64,000 bases of DNA, from NCBI GenBank assembly GCA_030426085.1, contig JAUHYW010000003.1, positions 119,343-183,342 on the forward strand. The letters are read 5' to 3'. The notes under the pieces are model-generated. The model had not been told where the DNA came from. It saw only the letters and a list, made by a program, of their open reading frames with translations, and made no database searches. This DNA is from a bacterium. GTDB lineage: Bacteria > Myxococcota_A > Bradymonadia > UBA7976 > UBA1532. The position numbers were made by a program, and so were the translations under genes. Shown one piece after another: positions 44,245 through 54,915 of the stretch. Within the stretch, counting starts at the first letter, position 1, and each line of letters starts with the position of its first letter.

Positions 44245-46734
44245 GTGGCCGACGATCAGCGGCCCCAGATGTCAGGCGCGATACCGGTCGCCCGGCTCGA
44301 TGACCGCTACGCCTTGACCGATCGCACCGGGCACAAGCTCGGCGAGGTCCCGCTCGCGACGATCGTGGGGCTGATCAAGCAGGGGCGCCTCTTCCGCACC
44401 GATCAGGTCAGCAAGAACGGCGCGCCGGTGCAGCCCCTCGGCGAGCTGCCCGAGTTCGAGGAGCTCTTCAGCCAGCTCCTGCCCCAGGCGTTCCACGTCG
44501 ACGGCACCAACCTGCGCCCGGCCCCCGAGCTGTCGGGGCAGGCCGACCCCCTCACGATCGCCCGCCTCTTCGGCACGCTGTACCGCGAGCGGCGCACCGG
44601 GCGGCTGTTCCTGTGCGAGGCCGATCGCAAGCGGGAGAAGGTCATCTCGTTTCGCCAGGGCACCCCGATCAGCGCCAACTCGAACACCGAGGAGGAGTGG
44701 ATCGGCGAGCTGCTCATCGGCCAGGGGATCATCGACCGCGAGGCGTTCGACGAGGCGGTCGAGCACGCCCGCAACCACGGCAAGCGCATCGGCTCGGCCC
44801 TGATCTACCTCGAGAAGCTCTCCCCCCGCGAGCTGAAGCGGGCGCTGTCGGTGCAGGCGATGGAGCGGCTGCTCAACGCCTTCCGCATGACCGGCGGCAC
44901 CTATCAGTTCATCGCCGACGCGTCGGCCGCCGAGGACGAGATCCTGCTGCTCGCCTCGCCCCGGGACATCATCGAGACCGGGCTGTCGGCGGCGCTCGAA
45001 GGCCGCGAGATCAACGAGATCCTCGCCGGCTACGGCGACCCGATCTTCCGGGTCGAGGTGCCCGACGAGATCGCCGGTGACCTGCACGACGGCGACCAGG
45101 CGATGCTGCGCCAGCTCTCCCGGGGGCAGCCGCTCAGCCAGTGCATCGAGCGGGCGGCCAAGGCGGCCCGGCTGACCCCGGCCGAGGGCAAGCTGCGGGT
45201 GCTGACCCTGATCAAGATCGGGGTGCTCAAGGTCGGCGGGGCCGAGGTCGAGGCGCTCGAAAGCGTCGTGCACGAGCTCGAGAGCACCGACTTCTACCGC
45301 ATGCTCGACGTGCGGCGGGCGGCCTCGCTCGACGAGATCCGGACCGCCTTCGAGAAGAAGCGCGCCGAGTACAAGGGCGTCGAGCAGCCGGGGGACACCG
45401 CGGCGGTCACCCGGATGCGGGATACGATCACCAACCGGCTCGACCAGGCCCGGCAGACCCTGAGCGACCCCGAGGAGCGGGCGCTGTACGAGCGGGCGCT
45501 GCAGCTCGGGCTCGACTTCCACCAGCCCGAGGTGCGCCAGCGGCTCGAGCACGAGCAGCTCCTGCAGCGAGGGCGCTCGCTGCTGCGCCAGCAGAAGTAT
45601 GCCGAGGCGTTCGAGGCGTTCAGCCGGGCGGGCAGCCTCATCCCCGACGACCCCCAGATCTACATCGAGCTGGGCTGGGCCCGGTTCCTGGCCTCGGATC
45701 ACGGCCCGGAGGCCGCCCGGGAGGCCATCGCCGACGTCGAGCGGGCGCTGCGCCTGTCGAGCGAGTTCGACGACGCCTACGTGACCATCGGCAAGATCCA
45801 CCGCCTGCGGGGTGAGCTGGAGCAGGCCGAGGCCCAGCTCCGGCGGGCGATCGAGATCAACCCCCACAACAACGAGGCCCAGAGCGAGCTGCGGCTGCTG
45901 TTCACCCGCGAGCTCAAGTCGGGGCCCAAGCTCAACATCTCGTTCAAGGGCGGCGGCTCGCTGCTGCCGACCCTCGGGCTGGCCCTGGTCACCCTCATCG
46001 GGCTCTACATCGGGGCCAACGTGATCGGCGGCGGGGCCGAGACGTGGCCCGACGTGGCCAGCGCCCGGGCCGAGGCGATGGCCGGCGGCCCCGGCGGCAG
46101 CGACGCCGAGCGCGAGCTGACCCGGGCGGTCATGGAGCGGCTGCAAGGCGAGGTCGACCTGACCGTGCCCCCCGACGAGCGGGTGCTGGGCAACGTCGAG
46201 TACTACTACCTCGCCGACGACGGGTGGTGGTGGATCCGGCGGGGTGCGCTGTTGCTGATGGGCCTCATCGGCATCTTCGCGGTGCGCCGGGAGCGCTTCG
46301 AGGACCTCGCCCTCTTCGGCGAGAAGCCGGCCTGGATCATGGCCGCGCTGCCGTATGGCCTGCTGCTCGGCTTCCTGACCCCGACCCCCGACACCCCGAC
46401 CGCCGTCGGCCCGGCGATGGGCATGGCCGCGATGCACATACTGGCCGAGGTGGTGTTCTTCATCGCCTTCCTCGGCCGGGCGCTGCTCGACGAGCTCGAG
46501 GAGCCGGCGATCGCGATCGTGGTGCTGGTGGTCTTCTACGGCCTGTACCGGGCCACCTTCTTCGCCACGCTCCAGGCCCCGGGCACGCTGATGGTGTCCG
46601 ACATCCTCCAGTCGGCGGCCTTCGTCGGCGGGGTGTACGGGATCCTGCTGTGGCGCAGCGGCGGCCTCTTCGCGCCCTTGTTGGCCCATCTGCTGCTCAT
46701 CGGCATGATGATGGTGCGGGCGACGGTGCTCTGA
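44245..46734 (+). CDS. multidomain membrane protein: N-terminal domain + DUF4388-like + degenerate J-domain + TPR + C-terminal 6-7 TM domain
   Basis: GTG with GGAGG RBS. DUF4388-like region (LFGTLYRERRTGRLFLCEADRKREKVISFRQGTPISANS). J-like helix bundle lacking HPD (TDFYRMLDVRRAASLDEIRTAFEKKRAEYK...LSDPEERALYE). TPR helices (YAEAFEAFSRAGSLIPDDPQIYIELGWARF...). C-terminal polytopic membrane domain. Confidence 0.75.
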   Translation: MADDQRPQMSGAIPVARLDDRYALTDRTGHKLGEVPLATIVGLIKQGRLFRTDQVSKNGAPVQPLGELPEFEELFSQLLPQAFHVDGTNLRPAPELSGQADPLTIARLFGTLYRERRTGRLFLCEADRKREKVISFRQGTPISANSNTEEEWIGELLIGQGIIDREAFDEAVEHARNHGKRIGSALIYLEKLSPRELKRALSVQAMERLLNAFRMTGGTYQFIADASAAEDEILLLASPRDIIETGLSAALEGREINEILAGYGDPIFRVEVPDEIAGDLHDGDQAMLRQLSRGQPLSQCIERAAKAARLTPAEGKLRVLTLIKIGVLKVGGAEVEALESVVHELESTDFYRMLDVRRAASLDEIRTAFEKKRAEYKGVEQPGDTAAVTRMRDTITNRLDQARQTLSDPEERALYERALQLGLDFHQPEVRQRLEHEQLLQRGRSLLRQQKYAEAFEAFSRAGSLIPDDPQIYIELGWARFLASDHGPEAAREAIADVERALRLSSEFDDAYVTIGKIHRLRGELEQAEAQLRRAIEINPHNNEAQSELRLLFTRELKSGPKLNISFKGGGSLLPTLGLALVTLIGLYIGANVIGGGAETWPDVASARAEAMAGGPGGSDAERELTRAVMERLQGEVDLTVPPDERVLGNVEYYYLADDGWWWIRRGALLLMGLIGIFAVRRERFEDLALFGEKPAWIMAALPYGLLLGFLTPTPDTPTAVGPAMGMAAMHILAEVVFFIAFLGRALLDELEEPAIAIVVLVVFYGLYRATFFATLQAPGTLMVSDILQSAAFVGGVYGILLWRSGGLFAPLLAHLLLIGMMMVRATVL

Positions 46735-46750
46735 CGGACCCGACGGAGGA

Positions 46751-47188
46751 GTGAGCGACGTGGCGAGAGAGCGAATCCTGGTCGGTCAGGACGAGGCGAT
46801 CGTCGAGGCGGCCAGGCCCCTGGTCGCGCGGATCGACGCCGAGATCGACCTGGTCGCGGTCGGCGACGGGGCCCGGTGCATCGTGGCCTTCACCAAGCTC
46901 ATCCGGGCCGGCAAGCCGCCGCTGCTCGTGGTGCTCGACGATACGCTCGCCCGCATCGACGGCGAGGGCTGCGCCCGGTCGATACGAGCGATCGAGCGGG
47001 CCTTCGAGGCCGAGCCGGTCGCGATCCTGTTCTACGCCGACGAGGCGGCCGACGAGACCCGCAAGGGGCTGCTGGCGACGCTGGGCCGGGCGGTGCACTT
47101 GCAGCGGCGGGCCGAGCCCACCGACCAGCAGGCGCTGCGGCTCGCCAAGGCGCTCGCCCGGCTGCTCAAGCAGGTCAGGGGTCAGTGA
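46751..47188 (+). CDS. receiver (REC)-like single-domain protein
   Basis: (beta/alpha)5-like pattern with candidate phospho-Asp in LLVVLDDTLARIDGEG. Stop overlaps the next start (GTGATGG). Confidence 0.55.
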   Translation: MSDVARERILVGQDEAIVEAARPLVARIDAEIDLVAVGDGARCIVAFTKLIRAGKPPLLVVLDDTLARIDGEGCARSIRAIERAFEAEPVAILFYADEAADETRKGLLATLGRAVHLQRRAEPTDQQALRLAKALARLLKQVRGQ

Positions 47189-47952
47189 TGGACACCAAGT
47201 ACTGCCCGTCGTGCGGCCAGGAAGTGCCTCTGGAGCGCACGCTGCAGGGCAACTACCTGATGATCGCGTGCCGCAACTGCGGCCTGGGTCTGGGGGTGAA
47301 GCTGGCCAGCGCCGACGAGCTGCGCAAGCTGTCGACCCCCGAGCAGCCCTCGCTGGCCCGGGTCGAGGTCGTCAAGCGCCAGCGCACCATCTCGGCCGCG
47401 GTCGAGAAGCCGGCCCCGCCCGACCCCCGCTCGGCGGCGCCCCGCGAGGCGCCGCCCCCACCGGCCCCGGCCCCGGCCCCGGCCGACATCGAGGCGATGA
47501 AGCGGGCCACCGAGGGCGGCCCGGTGCGCCAGATGGGGCAGGTCATGCTGGCCGAGGACTCGCAGTTCCTGCGCCAGATCACCCGCGACCTGCTGCTCTC
47601 GCAGCAGCTCGCCCGGGAGGTCGTCGACTGCGAGGACGGGGTCGCCTTCGTCGAGGCCTACACCCGGGCGCTCGCCGCCGGCGACCGGCCCGACCTGGTG
47701 GTGCTCGACGTGCGCATGCCCGGGCTCGACGGCCAGCAGGCGGCGTTCGCGATGCGGGCGGTCGAGACCGCGATGGGCCAGAAGCGGACCCCGATCCTGT
47801 TCTTCTCGGCGGTGCTGTGCGACGAGAAGTTCAAGGGCATCCTGCAGGAGCTGGGCAACGCCCGGTACATCCGCAAGAGCGAGGACGGCGACGCCCAGCA
47901 GCTCGGCAACCGCATCGTCTCGGTGCTCGGGCGGCTGGTCGGGGCGCGTTGA
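47188..47952 (+). CDS. response regulator with N-terminal zinc-ribbon and C-terminal receiver domain, no output domain
   Basis: CPSCGQEV...CRNCGLGL ribbon. Pro-rich linker. REC motifs (MLAEDSQF, LVVLDVRMPGLDG, ILFFSA...K). Confidence 0.7.
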   Translation: MDTKYCPSCGQEVPLERTLQGNYLMIACRNCGLGLGVKLASADELRKLSTPEQPSLARVEVVKRQRTISAAVEKPAPPDPRSAAPREAPPPPAPAPAPADIEAMKRATEGGPVRQMGQVMLAEDSQFLRQITRDLLLSQQLAREVVDCEDGVAFVEAYTRALAAGDRPDLVVLDVRMPGLDGQQAAFAMRAVETAMGQKRTPILFFSAVLCDEKFKGILQELGNARYIRKSEDGDAQQLGNRIVSVLGRLVGAR

Positions 47953-48065
47953 TTTTTTTCAGTATTGGTGAAACTCGACACAAATACAGGAATACGGAGC
48001 TTGCGTCGACGCCCCCCGATCCCTACACTGGGCTCACCGTCGACACGCACCGCCAGGAGGAGCCG
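47953..48065 (+). promoter_or_regulatory. AT-rich intergenic element (ttgatttttttcagtattggtgaaactcgacacaaatacaggaatacgg) upstream of the mini-protein/exosortase genes
   Basis: A roughly 45% GC island in a ~70% GC background, immediately after the receiver gene and before an AGGAGG RBS. Candidate internal promoter or regulator binding site. Confidence 0.35.
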
Positions 48066-48287
48066 ATGAACCGCCTGTGGACCGCCGCCTACGTCAACCT
48101 GGCCAGCCTGCTGGTCGCATTCGCCGCCTTCGCCGGCTCGTCGCGCACCCCGCCCGGCGGTGACCAGGGCAGCTCGGGCTCCGAGCCGGCCCTGTTCGCG
48201 CTGCTGCTCTTCGCCGCGGTGCCCGGCGTGCTCTTCGTGCGCAAGGCGCTCGCCGCCCAGCGGGCCGACGAGGATCAGCCCCTCTGA
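48066..48287 (+). CDS. mini membrane protein (74 aa) with PEP-CTERM-like arrangement (SEP - TM helix - RK)
   Basis: AGGAGG RBS. MNRLWTAAYVNLASLLVAFAAFAG (signal-like helix)...GSEPALFALLLFAAVPGVLFVRKAL plus an 11-aa tail. High GC3. Confidence 0.45.
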   Translation: MNRLWTAAYVNLASLLVAFAAFAGSSRTPPGGDQGSSGSEPALFALLLFAAVPGVLFVRKALAAQRADEDQPL

Positions 48288-48394
48288 CGACCGCGCCCGC
48301 CGCCGCGCCCGCCGCGCGGGCCGCCGATCGACCCCCCTCCCCTCGCCCTCCGACCGACCGCCGCTGGCCCGGGGCCTACGCCGCGCTGCTCGCC

Positions 48395-49291
48395 GTGGGC
48401 CTCGCCCTGCTCGCGCTTCCGATCCCGTTCTGGGCGGTGGAGCGCTGGCTGGGCGGCATGCTCGGCGGCGCGGCGGCGGGGCTGCTGACGGTCCCCATCT
48501 GCCTCGTGCTGGCGTGGCTCGCCACCCGCCACCCGGCGTGGGATCGGCTCTCGACGCTGCCCGATCGGCCGGGGGCCACCGCGGCGCTCGGGGTGATCGT
48601 GGCGGCCCAGATCGGGGTGCTCGCCCTCGCCGCGCCGTGGGGCGGCGACCGGTGGGACGCGCTGCTGCTCGGGGGCGTCCTGGCCATCGCGGGCGTCTGG
48701 ATCTGGCTGTGGGGCGCGCTGGGCTACGGCCGGGCCCGAGGCCTCGTCTTCCCGGTGGCCTTCGCCGGCTTCGCCCTGCCCTGGGAGCACTTCCTGCGGG
48801 GCGCGATCGACACCCCGCTGCAAGCCTGGACCGCCGACATCGCCCTGCGCGGGCTGCGCCTCGCCGGCTACCCGATGCGGTATTGGAACAGCTACACCAT
48901 CTACTCGCCGGACTACTTCATCATCGTCAACGAGACCTGCTCGGGCATGAACATGCTGGTGACCCTCGGCATGTACACCCTCATCTTCGAGTGGCTGGTG
49001 CAGCCCCGGATGCGCAACCGGCTGCTGGTCCTGGCGCTGGCCTTCCCCCTGGCGATGCTGGCCAACGGGGCCCGGGTGGCGGTCATCTACCTGCTGGGCC
49101 ACTACGGCGGAGTGCCGGCGGCGGAGGGCTTCTGGCACACCGGCAGCGCCTACGTGATCTTCGTGCCGGTGTTCTGGTTCATCTTCGTCGTCGACCGGGC
49201 GCTGACCCGCCGCGACCGCAGGGCGAGGGCCGCCGCCAGCAGCAGCAGCGCGCCGCAGAGCCCCATCCACCAGTCGCCCCAGCGCACGTAG
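48395..49291 (+). CDS. exosortase family protein (EpsH/Xrt-like)
   Basis: Eight predicted TM helices. Conserved active-site region VNETCSGMNMLVTLGMY (Cys). LANGARVAVIYLLGH (Arg). First canonical in-frame start is GTG 48395. C-terminal tail overlaps the convergent lnt by about 140 nt. Confidence 0.8.
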   Translation: MGLALLALPIPFWAVERWLGGMLGGAAAGLLTVPICLVLAWLATRHPAWDRLSTLPDRPGATAALGVIVAAQIGVLALAAPWGGDRWDALLLGGVLAIAGVWIWLWGALGYGRARGLVFPVAFAGFALPWEHFLRGAIDTPLQAWTADIALRGLRLAGYPMRYWNSYTIYSPDYFIIVNETCSGMNMLVTLGMYTLIFEWLVQPRMRNRLLVLALAFPLAMLANGARVAVIYLLGHYGGVPAAEGFWHTGSAYVIFVPVFWFIFVVDRALTRRDRRARAAASSSSAPQSPIHQSPQRT

Positions 49292-50670
49292 AGCGTCGGG
49301 TCGCTGCGCAGCCGGGCCTCGCCCCGCAGCACGCCCGGTTCGAAGAGCCCCAGGGCGCCGTGCGCCCGACCGCGGGGGTCGATGAGCGTCGTGATGCCCG
49401 CCTGCCCCACCCGCAGCAGCCAGCGGCCGGTCTCCACCGCCCGGATCGCCGCCCGGCGGGTCATGTGATCGGTGATCGGAGAGCGCCCGAAGCCGGCGTC
49501 GTTGCTCATCACGACCAGCAGCTCGGCGCCGCGGGCCGCCAGCGCCCGGGCCCCGATGGGATAGACCGACTCCAGGCAGATGAGGGCCCCGATCCGGCCG
49601 GCGGGGGTCGCGATGGGGCGCCACGCGGGCCCCGGGGTGAAGTGGGCCTCGACCCCCGGCACCAGCCGCACCTTGGCCTGACGCCCGATCTCGTCGCCGC
49701 CGGGCGCGATGGCCACCGCGAGGTTGTAGCCCCGCCCCTCGGCGTCGCGGGCGACGAGCCCCGCGATCAGCGTGCTGGTATCGTCGGCCCGGGGGAAGAG
49801 CCGGGCCCGCAGCGCCGCCGTCTCGAGCACCGGCGCCCGGACCGCCGTCTCGGGCCACACCACCAGATCGGGCCGGGCCGCGAGCGCCTGCCGGGTGAGC
49901 GCCTCGTAGGTGGCGACGACGTCCCGCATCGCCGCCGGATCGGCCTGCGCCGCCCGGTACTGGGCGTTGGCCAGCCCGCCCTGCACCCCGGCCACGGTGA
50001 TCGTGCGCTCGCCCAGCGGCGGCGGCGCGACGACCCCGGCGACGCCGACCAGCCCGATGAACCCCGCCGCGCCCAGCGCCGCCGGCCGGTGCGAGCGGCC
50101 GACGAAGGCGAGGTGCCACACGACGCTGCCGCAGAGCGCCAGGAGCGTGCTGACCCCCAGCCCGCCGGTGTGCGGGGCCAGGGCCAGCCACGGCCGCAGC
50201 CACCCGACGTCGGCGATCCCGCCCACGTAGCTCGCCGGCATCGACAGCGGCCCGATCGTCCGGATCCACTCGGTCAGGGCCCAGACCAGCGCCGGCAGCG
50301 CCACGTCGATGGCCTTGCCCGCCGGGCCGGCGACGCGGCCCCACAAGAGGCGCATCAGCAGGCCGTAGATGACCATCTGGCTGCCGGTGTATAGGCTGAA
50401 CGCCACCAGGATCCAGGCGCCGTAGTCGAGGATGCCGTAGATGTGGGCCCCGCCGAGCACGCCCACGAGGCCCCCGAGCAGCGCCGCCTGCGTCGCCGAG
50501 CGGGCGCCCCACAGCGCGCACAGCAGCGGCACGTTGGCCACCAGCGCCAGCGGGCCGAAGTAGATGAACGCCGCGCCGTTGAGCAGGCCGGAGAGCGCCG
50601 CCAGCGCCCAGCGGGCCTCGGCGCAGAGGGCCGGCGCCCAGCGGCCGGCGTGGGTGGGGGCGACGATCAT
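49150..50670 (-). CDS. lnt: apolipoprotein N-acyltransferase
   Basis: N-terminal polytopic domain plus CN-hydrolase domain with E/K/C triad (VVWPETA ... K ... LICLESVYP). C-terminal TM helix. Confidence 0.85.
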   Translation of the reverse strand: MIVAPTHAGRWAPALCAEARWALAALSGLLNGAAFIYFGPLALVANVPLLCALWGARSATQAALLGGLVGVLGGAHIYGILDYGAWILVAFSLYTGSQMVIYGLLMRLLWGRVAGPAGKAIDVALPALVWALTEWIRTIGPLSMPASYVGGIADVGWLRPWLALAPHTGGLGVSTLLALCGSVVWHLAFVGRSHRPAALGAAGFIGLVGVAGVVAPPPLGERTITVAGVQGGLANAQYRAAQADPAAMRDVVATYEALTRQALAARPDLVVWPETAVRAPVLETAALRARLFPRADDTSTLIAGLVARDAEGRGYNLAVAIAPGGDEIGRQAKVRLVPGVEAHFTPGPAWRPIATPAGRIGALICLESVYPIGARALAARGAELLVVMSNDAGFGRSPITDHMTRRAAIRAVETGRWLLRVGQAGITTLIDPRGRAHGALGLFEPGVLRGEARLRSDPTLYVRWGDWWMGLCGALLLLAAALALRSRRVSARSTTKMNQNTGTKIT

Positions 50671-50674
50671 GGGG

Positions 50675-51184
50675 TCACCACGGGGGCTCCCGGGCGCCGA
50701 TCAGGGCCAGATCGACCGCCGCCGGGGGCAGCGCGCCCTCGGGGATGCGCACCACGCCCACGCCGGGGACCAGCGCCACCGGATCCACGCCGAAGAGCCC
50801 GATCAGGAGCTGAGGTCCGTCGGCGGTGAGCCGCAGCCGGGGCGGGGCGCCGGTCCAGCGGTCGGCGGTGTGCGGCCGGGTCTCGAGGCCCAGGCCGTCG
50901 AGCAGCGCGGTCCAGCCGGCGGCGTCGGCGGGCGCCGGGCCGCGCGGCGGCGGGTGATCGGGCGCGTAGCGGGCGTGGATCTCGGCGGGCAGGCTCAGCG
51001 CGGGGCGGGGGTCGACCACCGCCCCCAGGGGCGCGGCGTAGGGGCTGTGATAGCTGCGGTACAGGCCCTCGACGGTGTAGTCGTCGGTCAGCTCGCTGTG
51101 GGCCCGCACCGCCACGGCGCCGACCCAGAGCAGCATCAGCGGCCACAGGATCCGGGCCGTCCGCCGGCCCGTGGCCCGGCTCAC
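50675..51184 (-). CDS. hypothetical small signal-anchored protein (169 aa)
   Basis: GTG start overlapping the kinase stop (GTGA). Signal-anchor [19 protein letters not shown]. Ends 4 nt before lnt. High GC3. The upstream track ORF part is antisense junk. Confidence 0.5.
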
Positions 51185-54100
51185 GGGTCGCGGGCCAGCC
51201 GGAAGCCCACCGAGACCGACACCGCGTTGGGCGCCATCGCGTGGCGCGAAGCGGCCCGGGCGTGCAGGTCGAGGTGGTTCCAGCTCCCGCCCCGGCAGAT
51301 GCGGTCGGCGTTCTCCCCCTCGGCCCCCGCCGGGCTGACCGTCCAATCGCTCACGCTGCCGGCCAGATCCATCACCCCGTACGGGCTGCGGTCGGTGGGG
51401 AAGCTGCCGCACGGCTCGAGGTGGGCCGCCCCGGGGCGGGCGTGAGCCGACTTGCAGTAGGTCGGCTCCCAGGTGTTGCCCCACGGGAAGTGGCGCAGGT
51501 CAGCGCCCCGGGCGGCGACCTCCCACTCGATCTCGGTCGGCAGGCGGTAGCGGGCGTGGTCCAGCGCGCTGCGCCAGCGGCAGTAGGCCAGCGCGTCGTC
51601 GAAGGCCACCCCGAACACCGGCCAGTTGGGGTCCCACGGGATGCCGTTGGGGTCCCGCTCGGGGATTTCGAACCGGCCGCCCGCCTCGCGGAAGAGCATG
51701 CCCCCGCCGGTGAACAGCCGCGGCGCCCGCCGCCGGGCCTGCTCGATGTCATCGGCGGCAAGCCCGTTGAGGAAGTCGAGGTACTGCCGCCCGCTGACCG
51801 GCAGCCGGGAGAGGCAGAAGTCGGCCACCTCGACGGTCTGCCGGGGCAGGCCCCACGAGGCGAGGCGGTCGCCGCCGATGGTCTTCGGGCCGCCCGGGAT
51901 GTAGACGAAGCCGGCCCCCAGCGCGGCCTCGGTGCGCATGCGCACCGTCACCTCGGCCTCGCCCAGCCGCTCGATGCGCACCGGCACCTGGGTGTCGCGC
52001 AGGCCGGGGGCCCGCAGCACGAGCAGGTAGTTGCCCATCGGCAGCGGGTCGACGACCACCGGGGTCCGCCCCAGGTCGCGCCCGTTCTGGGGGGTGAGGA
52101 TCTTGTCGATCTCGACGTAGTCGAACAGCACCGCCCGGGCGCCGGGGGGGTCGGTCTCGACCTGAAGCCGCCCGTCGCCCCGCAGCAGCTCGGCGTAGTG
52201 CCCGGTGTCGACCCCCCGCAGCACGGTCTCGTACTGCACCATCGCCGGCCGGTCGTCCTCGTGCTCGGCTTGCAGGAACCCGCCCCAGTAGAGCTGGCAC
52301 AGCCCCTCGCGGGCCTCGGCGTCGTCCGGGTCGCAGACCAGCGCCTGGCGGAAGCTCTGGCCGGCGCGGGTGAAGCTCTCCACCCGCTCCCGGCGGGCGT
52401 GGTCGAGGTGCTGCTGCGCGTCCCACAGCGGCCGCCGCTTCTCGGCCCCGGCCCACGGGGCCAGCCGCAGCCGCTGGTTCTCGACCTCGGCCATGAGCCG
52501 CTCGACCGCCCGGGTGTGGGCCCGGTAGTCGTCGACGTGGCCCTTGGCGGTGGTCGTGTGGCGCCGGGCCTCCTTGCGCTGCCGCTCCAGCTCCATCGCG
52601 CCCTCGAGGAAGCGCTGCAAGTCGGCGTGCACGTCGAGCACCGAGCGGTAGCGCTGCTCGATGTCCTTGGCCAGGCAGCGCATCGCGATGGCCTCGAGCT
52701 CGGCCGGGATCTCGCGGGCCGGGGCCCGCTTGCGGGGGGGGATGACCCGCTCGCGCAGCATCTTGCGGATGATCGCCCGCGCGTCGCGCCCGGTGTAGGG
52801 CGGCCGCAGGGTCAGGATCTCGTAGAGGATGGCCCCGAGGCTGTAGATGTCGGAGCGCTCGTCGACCTCGTCGAGGTTGCCCAGCGCCAGCTCGGGCGGC
52901 ATGTAGCCCGGGGTGCCGATGACCTCGCCGTGGCGGGTCGCCCACCGGCTCATGCCCGCCCGGTGGCTCTGGATGCCGTCCTCCACCGCCCGCCGGGGCA
53001 GGATCTTGGCCAGCCCCCAGTCCATGACCAGGATCTCGCCGAAGTCGCCGAACATGATGTTGCTCGGCTTGAGGTCGCGGTGCACGACGTGGCGGCTGTG
53101 GGCGTAGGCGATGCCCATGCACACCTGCTGGAAGCTCGTCAGCAGCCGGTTGCGGCCGAACTCGGCCTCGATGTCGGCGTCGCCCCGGCGCAGCCCCTTG
53201 AGCACGTCCCGCAGGGTGACGCCCTGCACCAGCTTCATCGTGAAGTAGAGCTGGCCGTCCTTGTGCCGCCCGAGGTCGTAGACCGGCACGATGTTGGGGT
53301 GCTGGAGCTGGCCGGTGATCTGGGCCTCTTCGGTGAAGCGGAGCTGCAGCCCGAGCTGCTCGTCCTTGCCCTTGATGAGCAGCTTCATGGCCACGGCCCG
53401 GTCGATGTTCTGGTCCCGGGCCTCGATCACCCGGCCCATGCCGCCCTTGGCGATCAGGCCGCCGAGCTCGTAGCGGGTCGCGCTCTGGTGCAGGGTCGGC
53501 AGCACGTCGCTGCGCCGGTCCCGCTCCCGCTCGGCGGTCTTCGGGCGGCGGTCGACGACGTCGAACGGCACCCCCCCGGGGCTCGGCGCGCGCTCGGGCT
53601 CGCCGGACATCTCGTCGACCGGTTCGAAGTCGGCCGAGGAGCCGAAGCCCGACCCCAGGTCGGAGACCGAGCGCTCCTGCTTGGAGACGTGGTCCGAGAC
53701 GAGCAGGTCGCCCCCGTCGGCCGGCCTCTCGATCTGGGGCAGCGCGCCCGACTGGGGCCGGATCCGACCCACCGGCAGCGCGTCGGGCAGCTCGTCGAAG
53801 CCGTCGTCGGTGCCGAACGCCCGGTAGGCGGCGAAGGGGTCGTCCGCCGAGTCGAGCCCGTCGGTCGCCGCGCTCTCGGCGGCGGCCCCCTCGAACAGGA
53901 AGTGCCCGTCGCCCACGTCGAGCAGCGCCTCGAGGTCGTCGTCGAGCGCCGGACTGCCCGCCGCCGAGGGCCCCTGGGAGACGTGGAACGGCAGATCGGC
54001 CGCCGGCGGGGGCCCGGTGTCGGCCATCGGCGCGCCGTCGTCCCACGGCAGGTCGGGCTCGGTGACCCGGCGGGCGGCGGGCATGAGGGTCGGGCTGTCG

Positions 54101-54915
54101 CTGTCCGGCTCGGGGCGCCCGGTCGGCTCGTCCGAGTCGTCGGGGCCCACGCTGTCGAAGACGTCGGCGTCCGTCGGCCCATCGAGCGGCTCGAGCGGCG
54201 CGTCGGAGTCGGCGAGCGAGACCACCCGGAACGGGTTCGCGCCCCGGGAGTCGAGGCCGTCGGCGGGCAGCGAGTCGTACTCGAAGGTGTTCATCGAGTC
54301 GAACGGTGATCCGAGCGAGTCGAGGCCGTCGTCCGACAGATCGGCCACCGGGGTGGTCTCGGCGCTGTCGAGGCGGTCGGGCGGGCGCGGCTCGGCGGGG
54401 GGCAGGATGTCCCGGCCGAAGGGCGCGGTGGCGGGTGGGGTGCCGGTCGGGGGGTCGCGATCGACCGGACGGCCGAAGGGTGTGGCCACCGCGGCCACCG
54501 GGCGCCGATCGGGGGGCGCGATGCCGGGGGTTGTCGGGCGGGCGGTCGGGCGGGCCACGCCGGGCGTCGTGGGCCGGGCCGGCGGGGCCTGGACCGCCGG
54601 CTCGGAGCGGCGGCCGGGCGGCGGCGAGACCGGCGTCGAGCCGGAGCTGTCGGGCCGGGGCCGGGGCGGCGCCGGGCGCAGGGCGACCCGGCCCGGCGGC
54701 GCCGACGAACCGCGCCGGTGACGGGGCGGCTCGTCGTCCTGGGCGATGAGCGAGGCGAGCTGGTCGTGGGAGGTCAACCCCATCTCGATGATGAGGTCGA
54801 CGAACGGGCGCCCGTTGGCCTCGGCGAGCTTGCGGAACTGATTGAGCAGGGGCTCGGGCACACCCAGCTTGTCACGCACCAGCGCGACGAGTCGGGTGTC
54901 GTCCAGGCCGTGCAT
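51181..54915 (-). CDS. Ser/Thr protein kinase with N-terminal T2SS-E N-terminal-like (MshEN-type) domain and C-terminal FGE-sulfatase (SUMF1-like) domain
   Basis: N-terminus [51 protein letters not shown]. About 380-aa Pro/Asp-rich disordered region. Kinase motifs ([42 protein letters not shown]). C-terminal FGE-sulfatase motifs ([14 protein letters not shown]...PWGN..., RGGSW). Confidence 0.85.

Follow-up and report, generated by a model that had tools for sequence, protein, structure and literature searches.

Results

A short gene precedes an exosortase gene in a conserved block

The window, by which we mean the whole 64,000-nt stretch of DNA analyzed here, carries a run of plus-strand genes that opens with an 829-aa protein, proceeds through a conserved 142-aa protein and a response regulator, and continues into a short open reading frame and an exosortase gene. 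We refer to the short frame as the mini gene and to its product as the mini-protein. On the minus strand, convergent with the exosortase, lie an apolipoprotein N-acyltransferase (Lnt) homolog, a conserved 169-aa protein and a Ser/Thr kinase. The features of this block, including the parts into which the mini-protein can be divided, are collected in Table 1.

Table 1. Genes and sequence features of the mini gene–exosortase block, with positions numbered along the window
Feature	Position	Strand	Basis or remarks
829-aa protein, first gene of the conserved plus-strand run	44245–46734	+	DUF4388/PatA_N, MshE-like c-di-GMP motif, J-domain, TPR, C-terminal CPBP (Rce1-like)
Conserved 142-aa protein	46760–47188	+	Synteny; no Pfam or NCBIfam family
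Zinc-ribbon and receiver response regulator	47188–47952	+	PF00072, 42.9 bits
Possible promoter	48001–48029	+	TTGCGT, 17-nt spacer, TACACT; weakly suggested by sequence
Shine-Dalgarno AGGAGG	48055–48060	+	5 nt before the ATG of the mini gene; read from sequence
Mini gene	48066–48287	+	ATG 48066, TGA 48285–48287; 73 aa plus stop; codon-position GC, homologous clusters
Predicted Sec signal peptide, aa 1–23	48066–48134	+	MNR, hydrophobic core, A-F-A
Gly/Ser/Pro linker, aa 24–38, GSSRTPPGGDQGSSG	48135–48179	+	Family composition
S-E-P motif, aa 39–41, counterpart of PEP	48180–48188	+	Invariant E-P
Transmembrane helix, aa 42–58, ALFALLLFAAVPGVLFV	48189–48239	+	Hydrophobic 17-mer, uncharged
Basic pair RK, then juxtamembrane A-L-x-A-Q and variable tail	48240–48284 (RK 48240–48245)	+	
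Exosortase	48338–49291	+	PF09721, 1.2e-38; annotated from GTG 48395; homology from 48338 or earlier
Lnt (apolipoprotein N-acyltransferase) homolog	49150–50670	−	TIGR00546, 148.5 bits versus 132.9; convergent with exosortase
Conserved 169-aa protein	50675–51184	−	Synteny; no family match
Ser/Thr kinase with FGE-sulfatase domain	51181–54915	−	Synteny; conserved neighbor beyond Lnt

The downstream gene encodes a genuine exosortase, as the initial annotation had held. It exceeds the cutoffs of both PF09721 (133.4 bits versus 25.7) and TIGR04178 (57.9 versus 23), and Cys182 (ETCSG), Arg227 (NGxR) and His248 (WH) are invariant in an alignment of 19 homologs that share 41–83% identity. The cutoff of no named Xrt subtype, XrtW and XrtD included, was reached, the best score being that for XrtA (95.6 versus 208) and the second that for XrtV (94.2 versus 313), and NCBI names the homologs only "exosortase/archaeosortase family protein." The enzyme defines an unnamed subfamily that is spread across Myxococcota.

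The 829-aa protein has an unusual architecture. Its MshE-like c-di-GMP-binding motif scores 40.7 bits against an NCBIfam cutoff of 38, and its CPBP/Rce1-like domain, an intramembrane protease domain, is sub-threshold in the window (16.1 versus 22.4), weak in locus L014 and matched in loci L015 and L016; no myxosortase model matched this domain. The response regulator starts with a zinc ribbon, which a Pro/Ala-rich linker connects to a receiver domain; an output domain is not recognizable. In the loci for which we inspected gene calls, its gene directly precedes the mini gene; the L016 counterpart has no Response_reg match. The Lnt homolog occupies the same position in all loci with available downstream DNA, and its tail-to-tail pairing with the exosortase is kept from Polyangia-like MAGs to Bradymonadia, the 3′ ends overlapping by 142 nt in the window (49150–49291) and by ~60–140 nt elsewhere (L001–L016, L037). 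Genes for EPS biosynthesis were not seen in the conserved block, and a literature search returned nothing on the mini gene–exosortase cluster or on a link between exosortases and Lnt.

The mini gene is real and constrained at the protein level

The mini gene translates to MNRLWTAAYVNLASLLVAFAAFAGSSRTPPGGDQGSSGSEPALFALLLFAAVPGVLFVRKALAAQRADEDQPL, a product of 73 residues; the length of 74 first reported for it had counted the stop codon. The strong AGGAGG ribosome-binding site ascribed to it is present (Table 1), and purine-rich GGAG-type sites occupy the equivalent position in eight orthologous loci. GC content by codon position in the mini gene (0.73/0.54/0.95) follows the same pattern as in the flanking real genes, in contrast to the 113-nt intergenic stretch immediately upstream, which gives 0.47/0.66/0.57. 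Comparisons between the window and its orthologs revealed conserved residues with synonymous codon changes; relative to L016, the window has 20 synonymous and 33 non-synonymous codon differences. The frame was called as a gene in independent assemblies. Translated in six frames, the window yields 539 ORFs of 50 aa or more, and only the mini gene matches [SPAT]EP followed by an uncharged hydrophobic 14–20-mer and two basic residues near the C terminus. The mini gene is thus real, and its sequence is under constraint at the level of the protein.

With a GC content of ~72%, the window is rich in long spurious ORFs. Very long open frames (358–748 aa) overlap real genes at 47211–48287 (+), 48160–50394 (+) and 48275–50521 (−), the first of them sharing the mini gene's own frame. 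These are high-GC artifacts and could mislead ORF-based annotation of the region.

GC content falls to ~57% in the intergenic stretch before the mini gene (47953–48065), which contains a T-rich run (47953–47990). A consensus scan around the mini gene returned neither a sigma-70 site nor a terminator-like site. Because a TAnnnT hexamer recurs 30–50 nt upstream of the mini gene's ATG in eight orthologous loci compared by eye, the sequences nevertheless suggest that the mini gene may have a promoter of its own inside the plus-strand gene run, for which a candidate is listed in Table 1. A riboswitch or attenuator in this region was rejected on the terminator result together with two others: Rfam gave no match around the mini gene at E up to 1, and the spacer at 48270–48400 folds no better than shuffled sequence (z = +2.1).

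The arrangement of the two frames suggests translational coupling

A gap of 107 nt had been noted between the mini gene and the exosortase. The figure is correct as measured to the annotated GTG at 48395, but exosortase homology already begins at 48338, and the true gap is shorter or absent. The annotated start cuts into conserved N-terminal exosortase sequence (RRWPGAYAALLAV...), and the enzyme of the window probably starts well before it. Past the upstream stop, a CTG at 48284 is the sole in-frame candidate for a start; it overlaps the stop codon of the mini gene as CTGA. An annotated start that is late relative to the homology is shared by the window and its near-identical relatives. In locus L022, the exosortase is without a canonical start and its frame runs on directly past the stop codon of the mini gene.

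Across the loci, the two frames often overlap or are separated by <40 nt. Stop and start overlap by 4 nt in L015 and by 14 nt in L012 and L013, and in other lineages they lie 0–100 nt apart. Since no canonical start precedes the exosortase homology in the window, we considered a programmed frameshift or readthrough that would fuse the mini gene to the exosortase. We rejected this as a general mechanism, because the relative reading frame of the two genes varies among loci (0, 1 or 2) and ordinary starts are present in most of them. A frame relation that is not conserved suggests termination–reinitiation coupling rather than frameshift fusion as the reading of these sequences.

Mini-proteins form a family built around an invariant E-P

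A search with the mini-protein of the window recovered five clusters at 62–100% identity. A profile that included more distant copies from syntenic loci, run against a word-indexed database of 5.8 billion proteins, extended this to 35 clusters of 56–83 aa, unnamed or annotated "hypothetical." HMMER, run exhaustively over 1.84 billion representatives, yielded 23 matches at E up to 0.001, all of 56–109 aa except two non-members, P0138 and P0139. The former is without the EP motif and unrelated in its N-terminal portion; the latter is a repeat protein in which GSEP is internal. As assembled, the family comprises ~50 sequence clusters, all of 56–109 aa and all from Myxococcota MAGs and metagenomes; sources identified by name are Myxococcota, including Myxococcales-type MAGs and Bradymonadia.

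Neither the 5.8-billion-protein search nor the HMMER search found a larger protein bearing the mini-protein's tail. When the six-frame ORFs of the window and 37 loci (~260 kb) were scanned with an HMM and a regular expression, the tail was again found in mini-proteins only. On these database and six-frame searches we rejected a sorting signal shared with larger proteins.

The architecture originally proposed for the window protein, a signal helix followed by SEP, a transmembrane helix and a basic pair, is present there and kept across the family. Its first 20 residues are variable among members (mean entropy 2.36 bits) and always open with one or two basic residues and then a hydrophobic core. 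Beyond them, A21 is found in at least 90% of the family, and A23 and G24 are invariant. AxA↓G reads as a classical signal peptidase I site, at which the precursor would be cleaved; the signal peptide and its cleavage site were judged by eye from sequence features. The 15-aa linker that follows is of near-constant length and 81% Gly/Ser/Pro (48% G, 22% S, 11% P), with P30 and G35 invariant. Its sequence shifts wholesale between lineages, reading SSRTPPGGDQGSSG in the window and GGGGGGGGPAPGGGGG in Bradymonadia, while xEP stays fixed.

This xEP is the lowest-entropy segment of the mini-protein (0.34 bits). E40 and P41 are invariant. At position 39, 30 sequences have S, 16 have P, 4 have A and 1 has T; about one-third of the members carry a true PEP. 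The distance from EP to the first basic residue is 17 residues in 41 of 48 family sequences. The intervening second helix is conserved (ALxLFSLxPGxxF), with A45, L46, S50 and F57 present in at least 90% of members and P53 and G54 invariant. So are R59 and A61, and the basic pair is RK or RR in 42 of the 48 sequences. A semi-conserved A-[LM]-x-A-[QR] comes next and then a tail that varies in both length and sequence (0–27 aa across the family, 2.75 bits); the acidic tail to which the initial annotation drew attention is therefore not a conserved feature. The window protein has 13 residues after RK and most members have 8–16; in a few, such as P0137 and P0140, little or nothing follows the basic cluster.

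The mini gene accompanies the exosortase across Myxococcota

DNA upstream of the orthologous exosortase was available for 31 loci, drawn from the window, one GTDB genome, Logan/ENA/NCBI contigs and JGI metagenomes. The mini gene is the immediate upstream neighbor of the exosortase in 28 of these, which represent 17 of 20 distinct lineages and range from Polyangia-like MAGs to Bradymonadia. The exceptions with no adjacent mini gene are L014, L019 and L024, in which a response-regulator gene abuts the exosortase (L014 5001–5891, L019 1638–2462, L024 1165–2097); in L014 and L024 the stop of the former overlaps the start of the latter, and L019 has a gap of ~100 nt before the first canonical start. 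Because these three loci form one clade in a neighbor-joining tree of the exosortases, their lack of the gene suggests one event in which it was lost or relocated. The clade has kept its exosortase, which appears to be active. As for loss of the ORF or its tail in relatives, which had been named as the observation that would speak against a sorting-signal cassette, the ORF and xEP-TM-R[RK] are kept in every related lineage except this one clade.

The exosortase of L014 and L024 begins MSEP... or MTEP..., which recalls the SEP of the missing mini gene. This is probably a coincidence.

Some orthologs of the window protein qualify as PEP-CTERM domains

The window protein itself matched no PEP-CTERM model (NCBIfam at E up to 10, Pfam at E up to 1), and it has Ser-Glu-Pro where the signature would be Pro-Glu-Pro. 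It does show other hallmarks of PEP-CTERM proteins, namely a helix straight after the motif with a basic cluster behind it (17 residues, RK), a predicted N-terminal signal peptide (MNR, hydrophobic core, A-F-A↓G) and co-occurrence with an exosortase, here as the direct adjacency described above.

Relatives of the window protein do reach the models, for which the cutoffs are 16 bits (TIGR02595; curated, NCBIfam) and 20.7 bits (PF07589). Syntenic orthologs with a true PEP pass TIGR02595, P0113 (from an L015-type locus, Bradymonadia form) with 17.6 bits and P0131 (L037) with 17.2; the P0131 locus has the same gene order as the window, namely mini gene, exosortase, convergent Lnt, 169-aa gene and kinase. 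The more distant P0140, whose C terminus reads VPEPSTLLL...RKFRKK, passes both models (29.1 bits for TIGR02595 and 24.7 for PF07589); no exosortase was seen on its 2-kb contig, and it serves only as a sequence bridge. Because orthologs with a true PEP pass the TIGR02595 cutoff, the SEP helix of the window is, by sequence, a divergent representative of a family in which other members count formally as PEP-CTERM domains. With E-P invariant throughout, the suggestion of a PEP-CTERM-like cassette has held up.

Bradymonadia-type orthologs read PEPETWA and give weak matches to PEPxxWA-CTERM (15.6–18.4 bits versus a cutoff of 35). Neither the window protein nor six homologs matched EpsI or other exosortase accessory families (NCBIfam, E up to 10). 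We therefore rejected membership of the mini-protein in named sorting-signal or accessory families, for all of which scores were below cutoff or absent.

Discussion

Minimal substrate, decoy and specificity partner were the roles originally suggested for the mini-protein. The reading we favor, and consider somewhat better than an even proposition, is that the mini-protein is a dedicated, passenger-less PEP-CTERM-type substrate, a pre-pro-peptide that serves the downstream exosortase one to one. Most likely it would be that exosortase's own minimal substrate, and with it a simple natural model for exosortase action. Several features argue for this. Conservation peaks at xEP and remains good in the second helix; it is low in the tail and in the N-terminal helix, the latter closing with an invariant AxA↓G. 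The geometry of PEP-CTERM signals is kept in the 17-residue spacing between EP and the basic residues, and the mini gene adjoins the orthologous exosortase in nearly all loci (28/31). Since the tail is found only in mini-proteins, the pattern is that of one enzyme and one target.

As a substrate, the mini-protein would be translated from its own strong ribosome-binding site, with the exosortase translationally coupled behind it. Its N-terminal 23 residues would act as a Sec signal peptide and be removed by signal peptidase I at A-F-A↓G. The remainder would be held in the inner membrane by the C-terminal helix, with RK and the tail in the cytoplasm and S-E-P at the periplasmic face of the membrane. 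There the exosortase may recognize xEP and the conserved helix, cleave with its Cys182/Arg227/His248 site, and pass an ~18-residue Gly/Ser/Pro-rich peptide (G24–P41) to an acceptor, leaving behind a 32-residue membrane stub. Both cleavages and the transfer are steps that we infer from the sequences.

Other features speak against a substrate. The window protein matches no PEP-CTERM model, it has S where PEP begins with P, and its basic residues number only two, with 13 more residues behind them. The semi-conserved A-[LM]-x-A-[QR] is missing from canonical PEP-CTERM domains, and the "passenger" amounts to ~15 low-complexity residues. The exosortase is not strictly dependent on its small neighbor, since the L014/L019/L024 clade keeps the enzyme alone. 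Finally, tight translational coupling would fit a stoichiometric partner equally well.

Such a partner is the main rival, which we judge unlikely although it deserves serious consideration. The mini-protein would then be a companion that the exosortase does not cleave, perhaps a subunit folded as a two-helix hairpin, perhaps a pseudo-substrate occupying the substrate groove via its xEP helix. It would regulate, stabilize or give specificity to the enzyme, and the true substrates would be encoded elsewhere in the genome. Strict adjacency and frequent overlap of stop and start suggest stoichiometric co-production, there is no meaningful passenger domain, a conserved juxtamembrane segment after the basic pair and an extra tail are atypical of sorting signals, and in one clade the exosortase persists without the mini gene. 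However, the first helix is the least conserved part of the protein apart from the tail and ends in the invariant AxA↓G, which fits a removable signal peptide and not a packing helix. The Gly-rich loop, moreover, changes wholesale (GGGGGGGGPAPGGGGG versus SSRTPPGGDQGSSG) though xEP is fixed, and neither EpsI nor another known family of exosortase accessory proteins resembles the mini-protein.

Within the substrate reading, a more specific version, which we regard as improbable, is that the real product is the excised ~18-residue Gly/Ser/Pro-rich peptide, covalently built into the envelope, a lipopeptide or a polymer. Signal peptidase would set its invariant N-terminal Gly and the exosortase its C terminus. 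The adjacent Lnt homolog, for example, could N-acylate the peptide, and the exosortase could join its C terminus to a lipid or glycan; alternatively, the free N-terminal Gly could act as the exosortase nucleophile and lead to head-to-tail ligation or cyclization. If true, this would make the peptide a ribosomally encoded, exosortase-made lipopeptide or polymer, and the first natural minimal substrate able to reveal exosortase acceptor chemistry.

A signaling device seems quite improbable to us. Here cleavage by the exosortase or the CPBP protein would release or expose the membrane stub and its juxtamembrane tail, to be sensed by the neighboring regulators, namely the receiver protein, the c-di-GMP-binding CPBP protein or the Ser/Thr kinase. 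The leftover C-peptides of sortase substrates provide an analog for such a stub. A conserved block of signaling genes surrounds the mini gene, and the helix and the first residues past the basic pair are more conserved than a generic anchor requires; against this, the distal tail is variable, and the CPBP domain is sub-threshold in the window and has no myxosortase match. The remaining alternative, that the mini-protein is an unrelated small membrane or secreted protein sharing the exosortase operon, or that its frame is spurious, could appeal to the high GC content and many long spurious ORFs of the window and to the lack of any model match for the window protein, but we consider it very improbable, and reject the spurious ORF, given coding-type GC3, a strong ribosome-binding site, synonymous changes at conserved residues, conservation in ~50 clusters of constant length and motif, a place beside the exosortase that is fixed across classes of Myxococcota, and orthologs that pass the PEP-CTERM cutoff.

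Viewed as a substrate and its enzyme, the mini-protein and exosortase invite comparison with several known sorting systems. In common with the PEP-CTERM/exosortase system (XrtA, EpsH; Haft et al. 2006, PMC1569441), they pair a signal peptide at the N terminus with a tripartite signal at the C terminus; in PEP-CTERM proteins the latter is a motif ending in E-P, a helix of ~17–20 residues and then basic residues (PMC1569441). A Gly/Ser-rich stretch precedes the motif in both, and both involve an EpsH-family exosortase with Cys/Arg/His. Unlike that system, which has tens of targets per enzyme, the one described here has a single target, and this target has no passenger domain, only ~15 linker residues. 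The mini family often has S, A or T for the first P, and its two basic residues are followed by 8–16 more residues. The neighbors also differ, being here Lnt, the CPBP/c-di-GMP protein, the receiver protein and the Ser/Thr kinase, with no EPS genes seen; this block hints at an undescribed, regulated pathway of envelope modification.

Dedicated exosortase and archaeosortase systems with a single adjacent target and a variant motif include MSEP-CTERM/XrtK and PEPxxWA-CTERM/XrtV, as given in their NCBIfam/TIGRFAMs descriptions. Dedicated sorting-enzyme systems with variant motifs were reportedly also treated by Haft et al. in 2012. The cassette resembles these systems in its one-to-one pairing of enzyme and target genes and in its variants of PEP, which include SEP, but it scores far below their cutoffs (35 for PEPxxWA-CTERM, 313 for XrtV). 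To our knowledge, the known dedicated targets are large multidomain proteins; going by those descriptions, the mini-protein differs in being essentially the signal alone.

LPXTG/sortase A and PGF-CTERM/archaeosortase A likewise rely on a C-terminal motif, helix and basic tail that are removed by a membrane-associated Cys/Arg/His enzyme, probably through transpeptidation onto a cell-envelope acceptor (10.1101/2023.06.07.544157). Sortase A has a fold unrelated to that of exosortases, and the substrates of both systems are large surface proteins. Their acceptors are known (lipid II and an archaeal lipid), in contrast to those of exosortases, for which the cleavage site, the acceptor and transpeptidase action itself are still unsettled (10.1101/2023.06.07.544157). 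Exosortases are widespread. The proteins on which they normally act are many, large and glycosylated, and following the chemistry on them is difficult. Here, by comparison, a two-gene cassette places a 73-residue substrate-like protein beside its own enzyme, the predicted mature part being a single short peptide, and would thereby offer a minimal natural substrate–enzyme pair with which to resolve exosortase chemistry.
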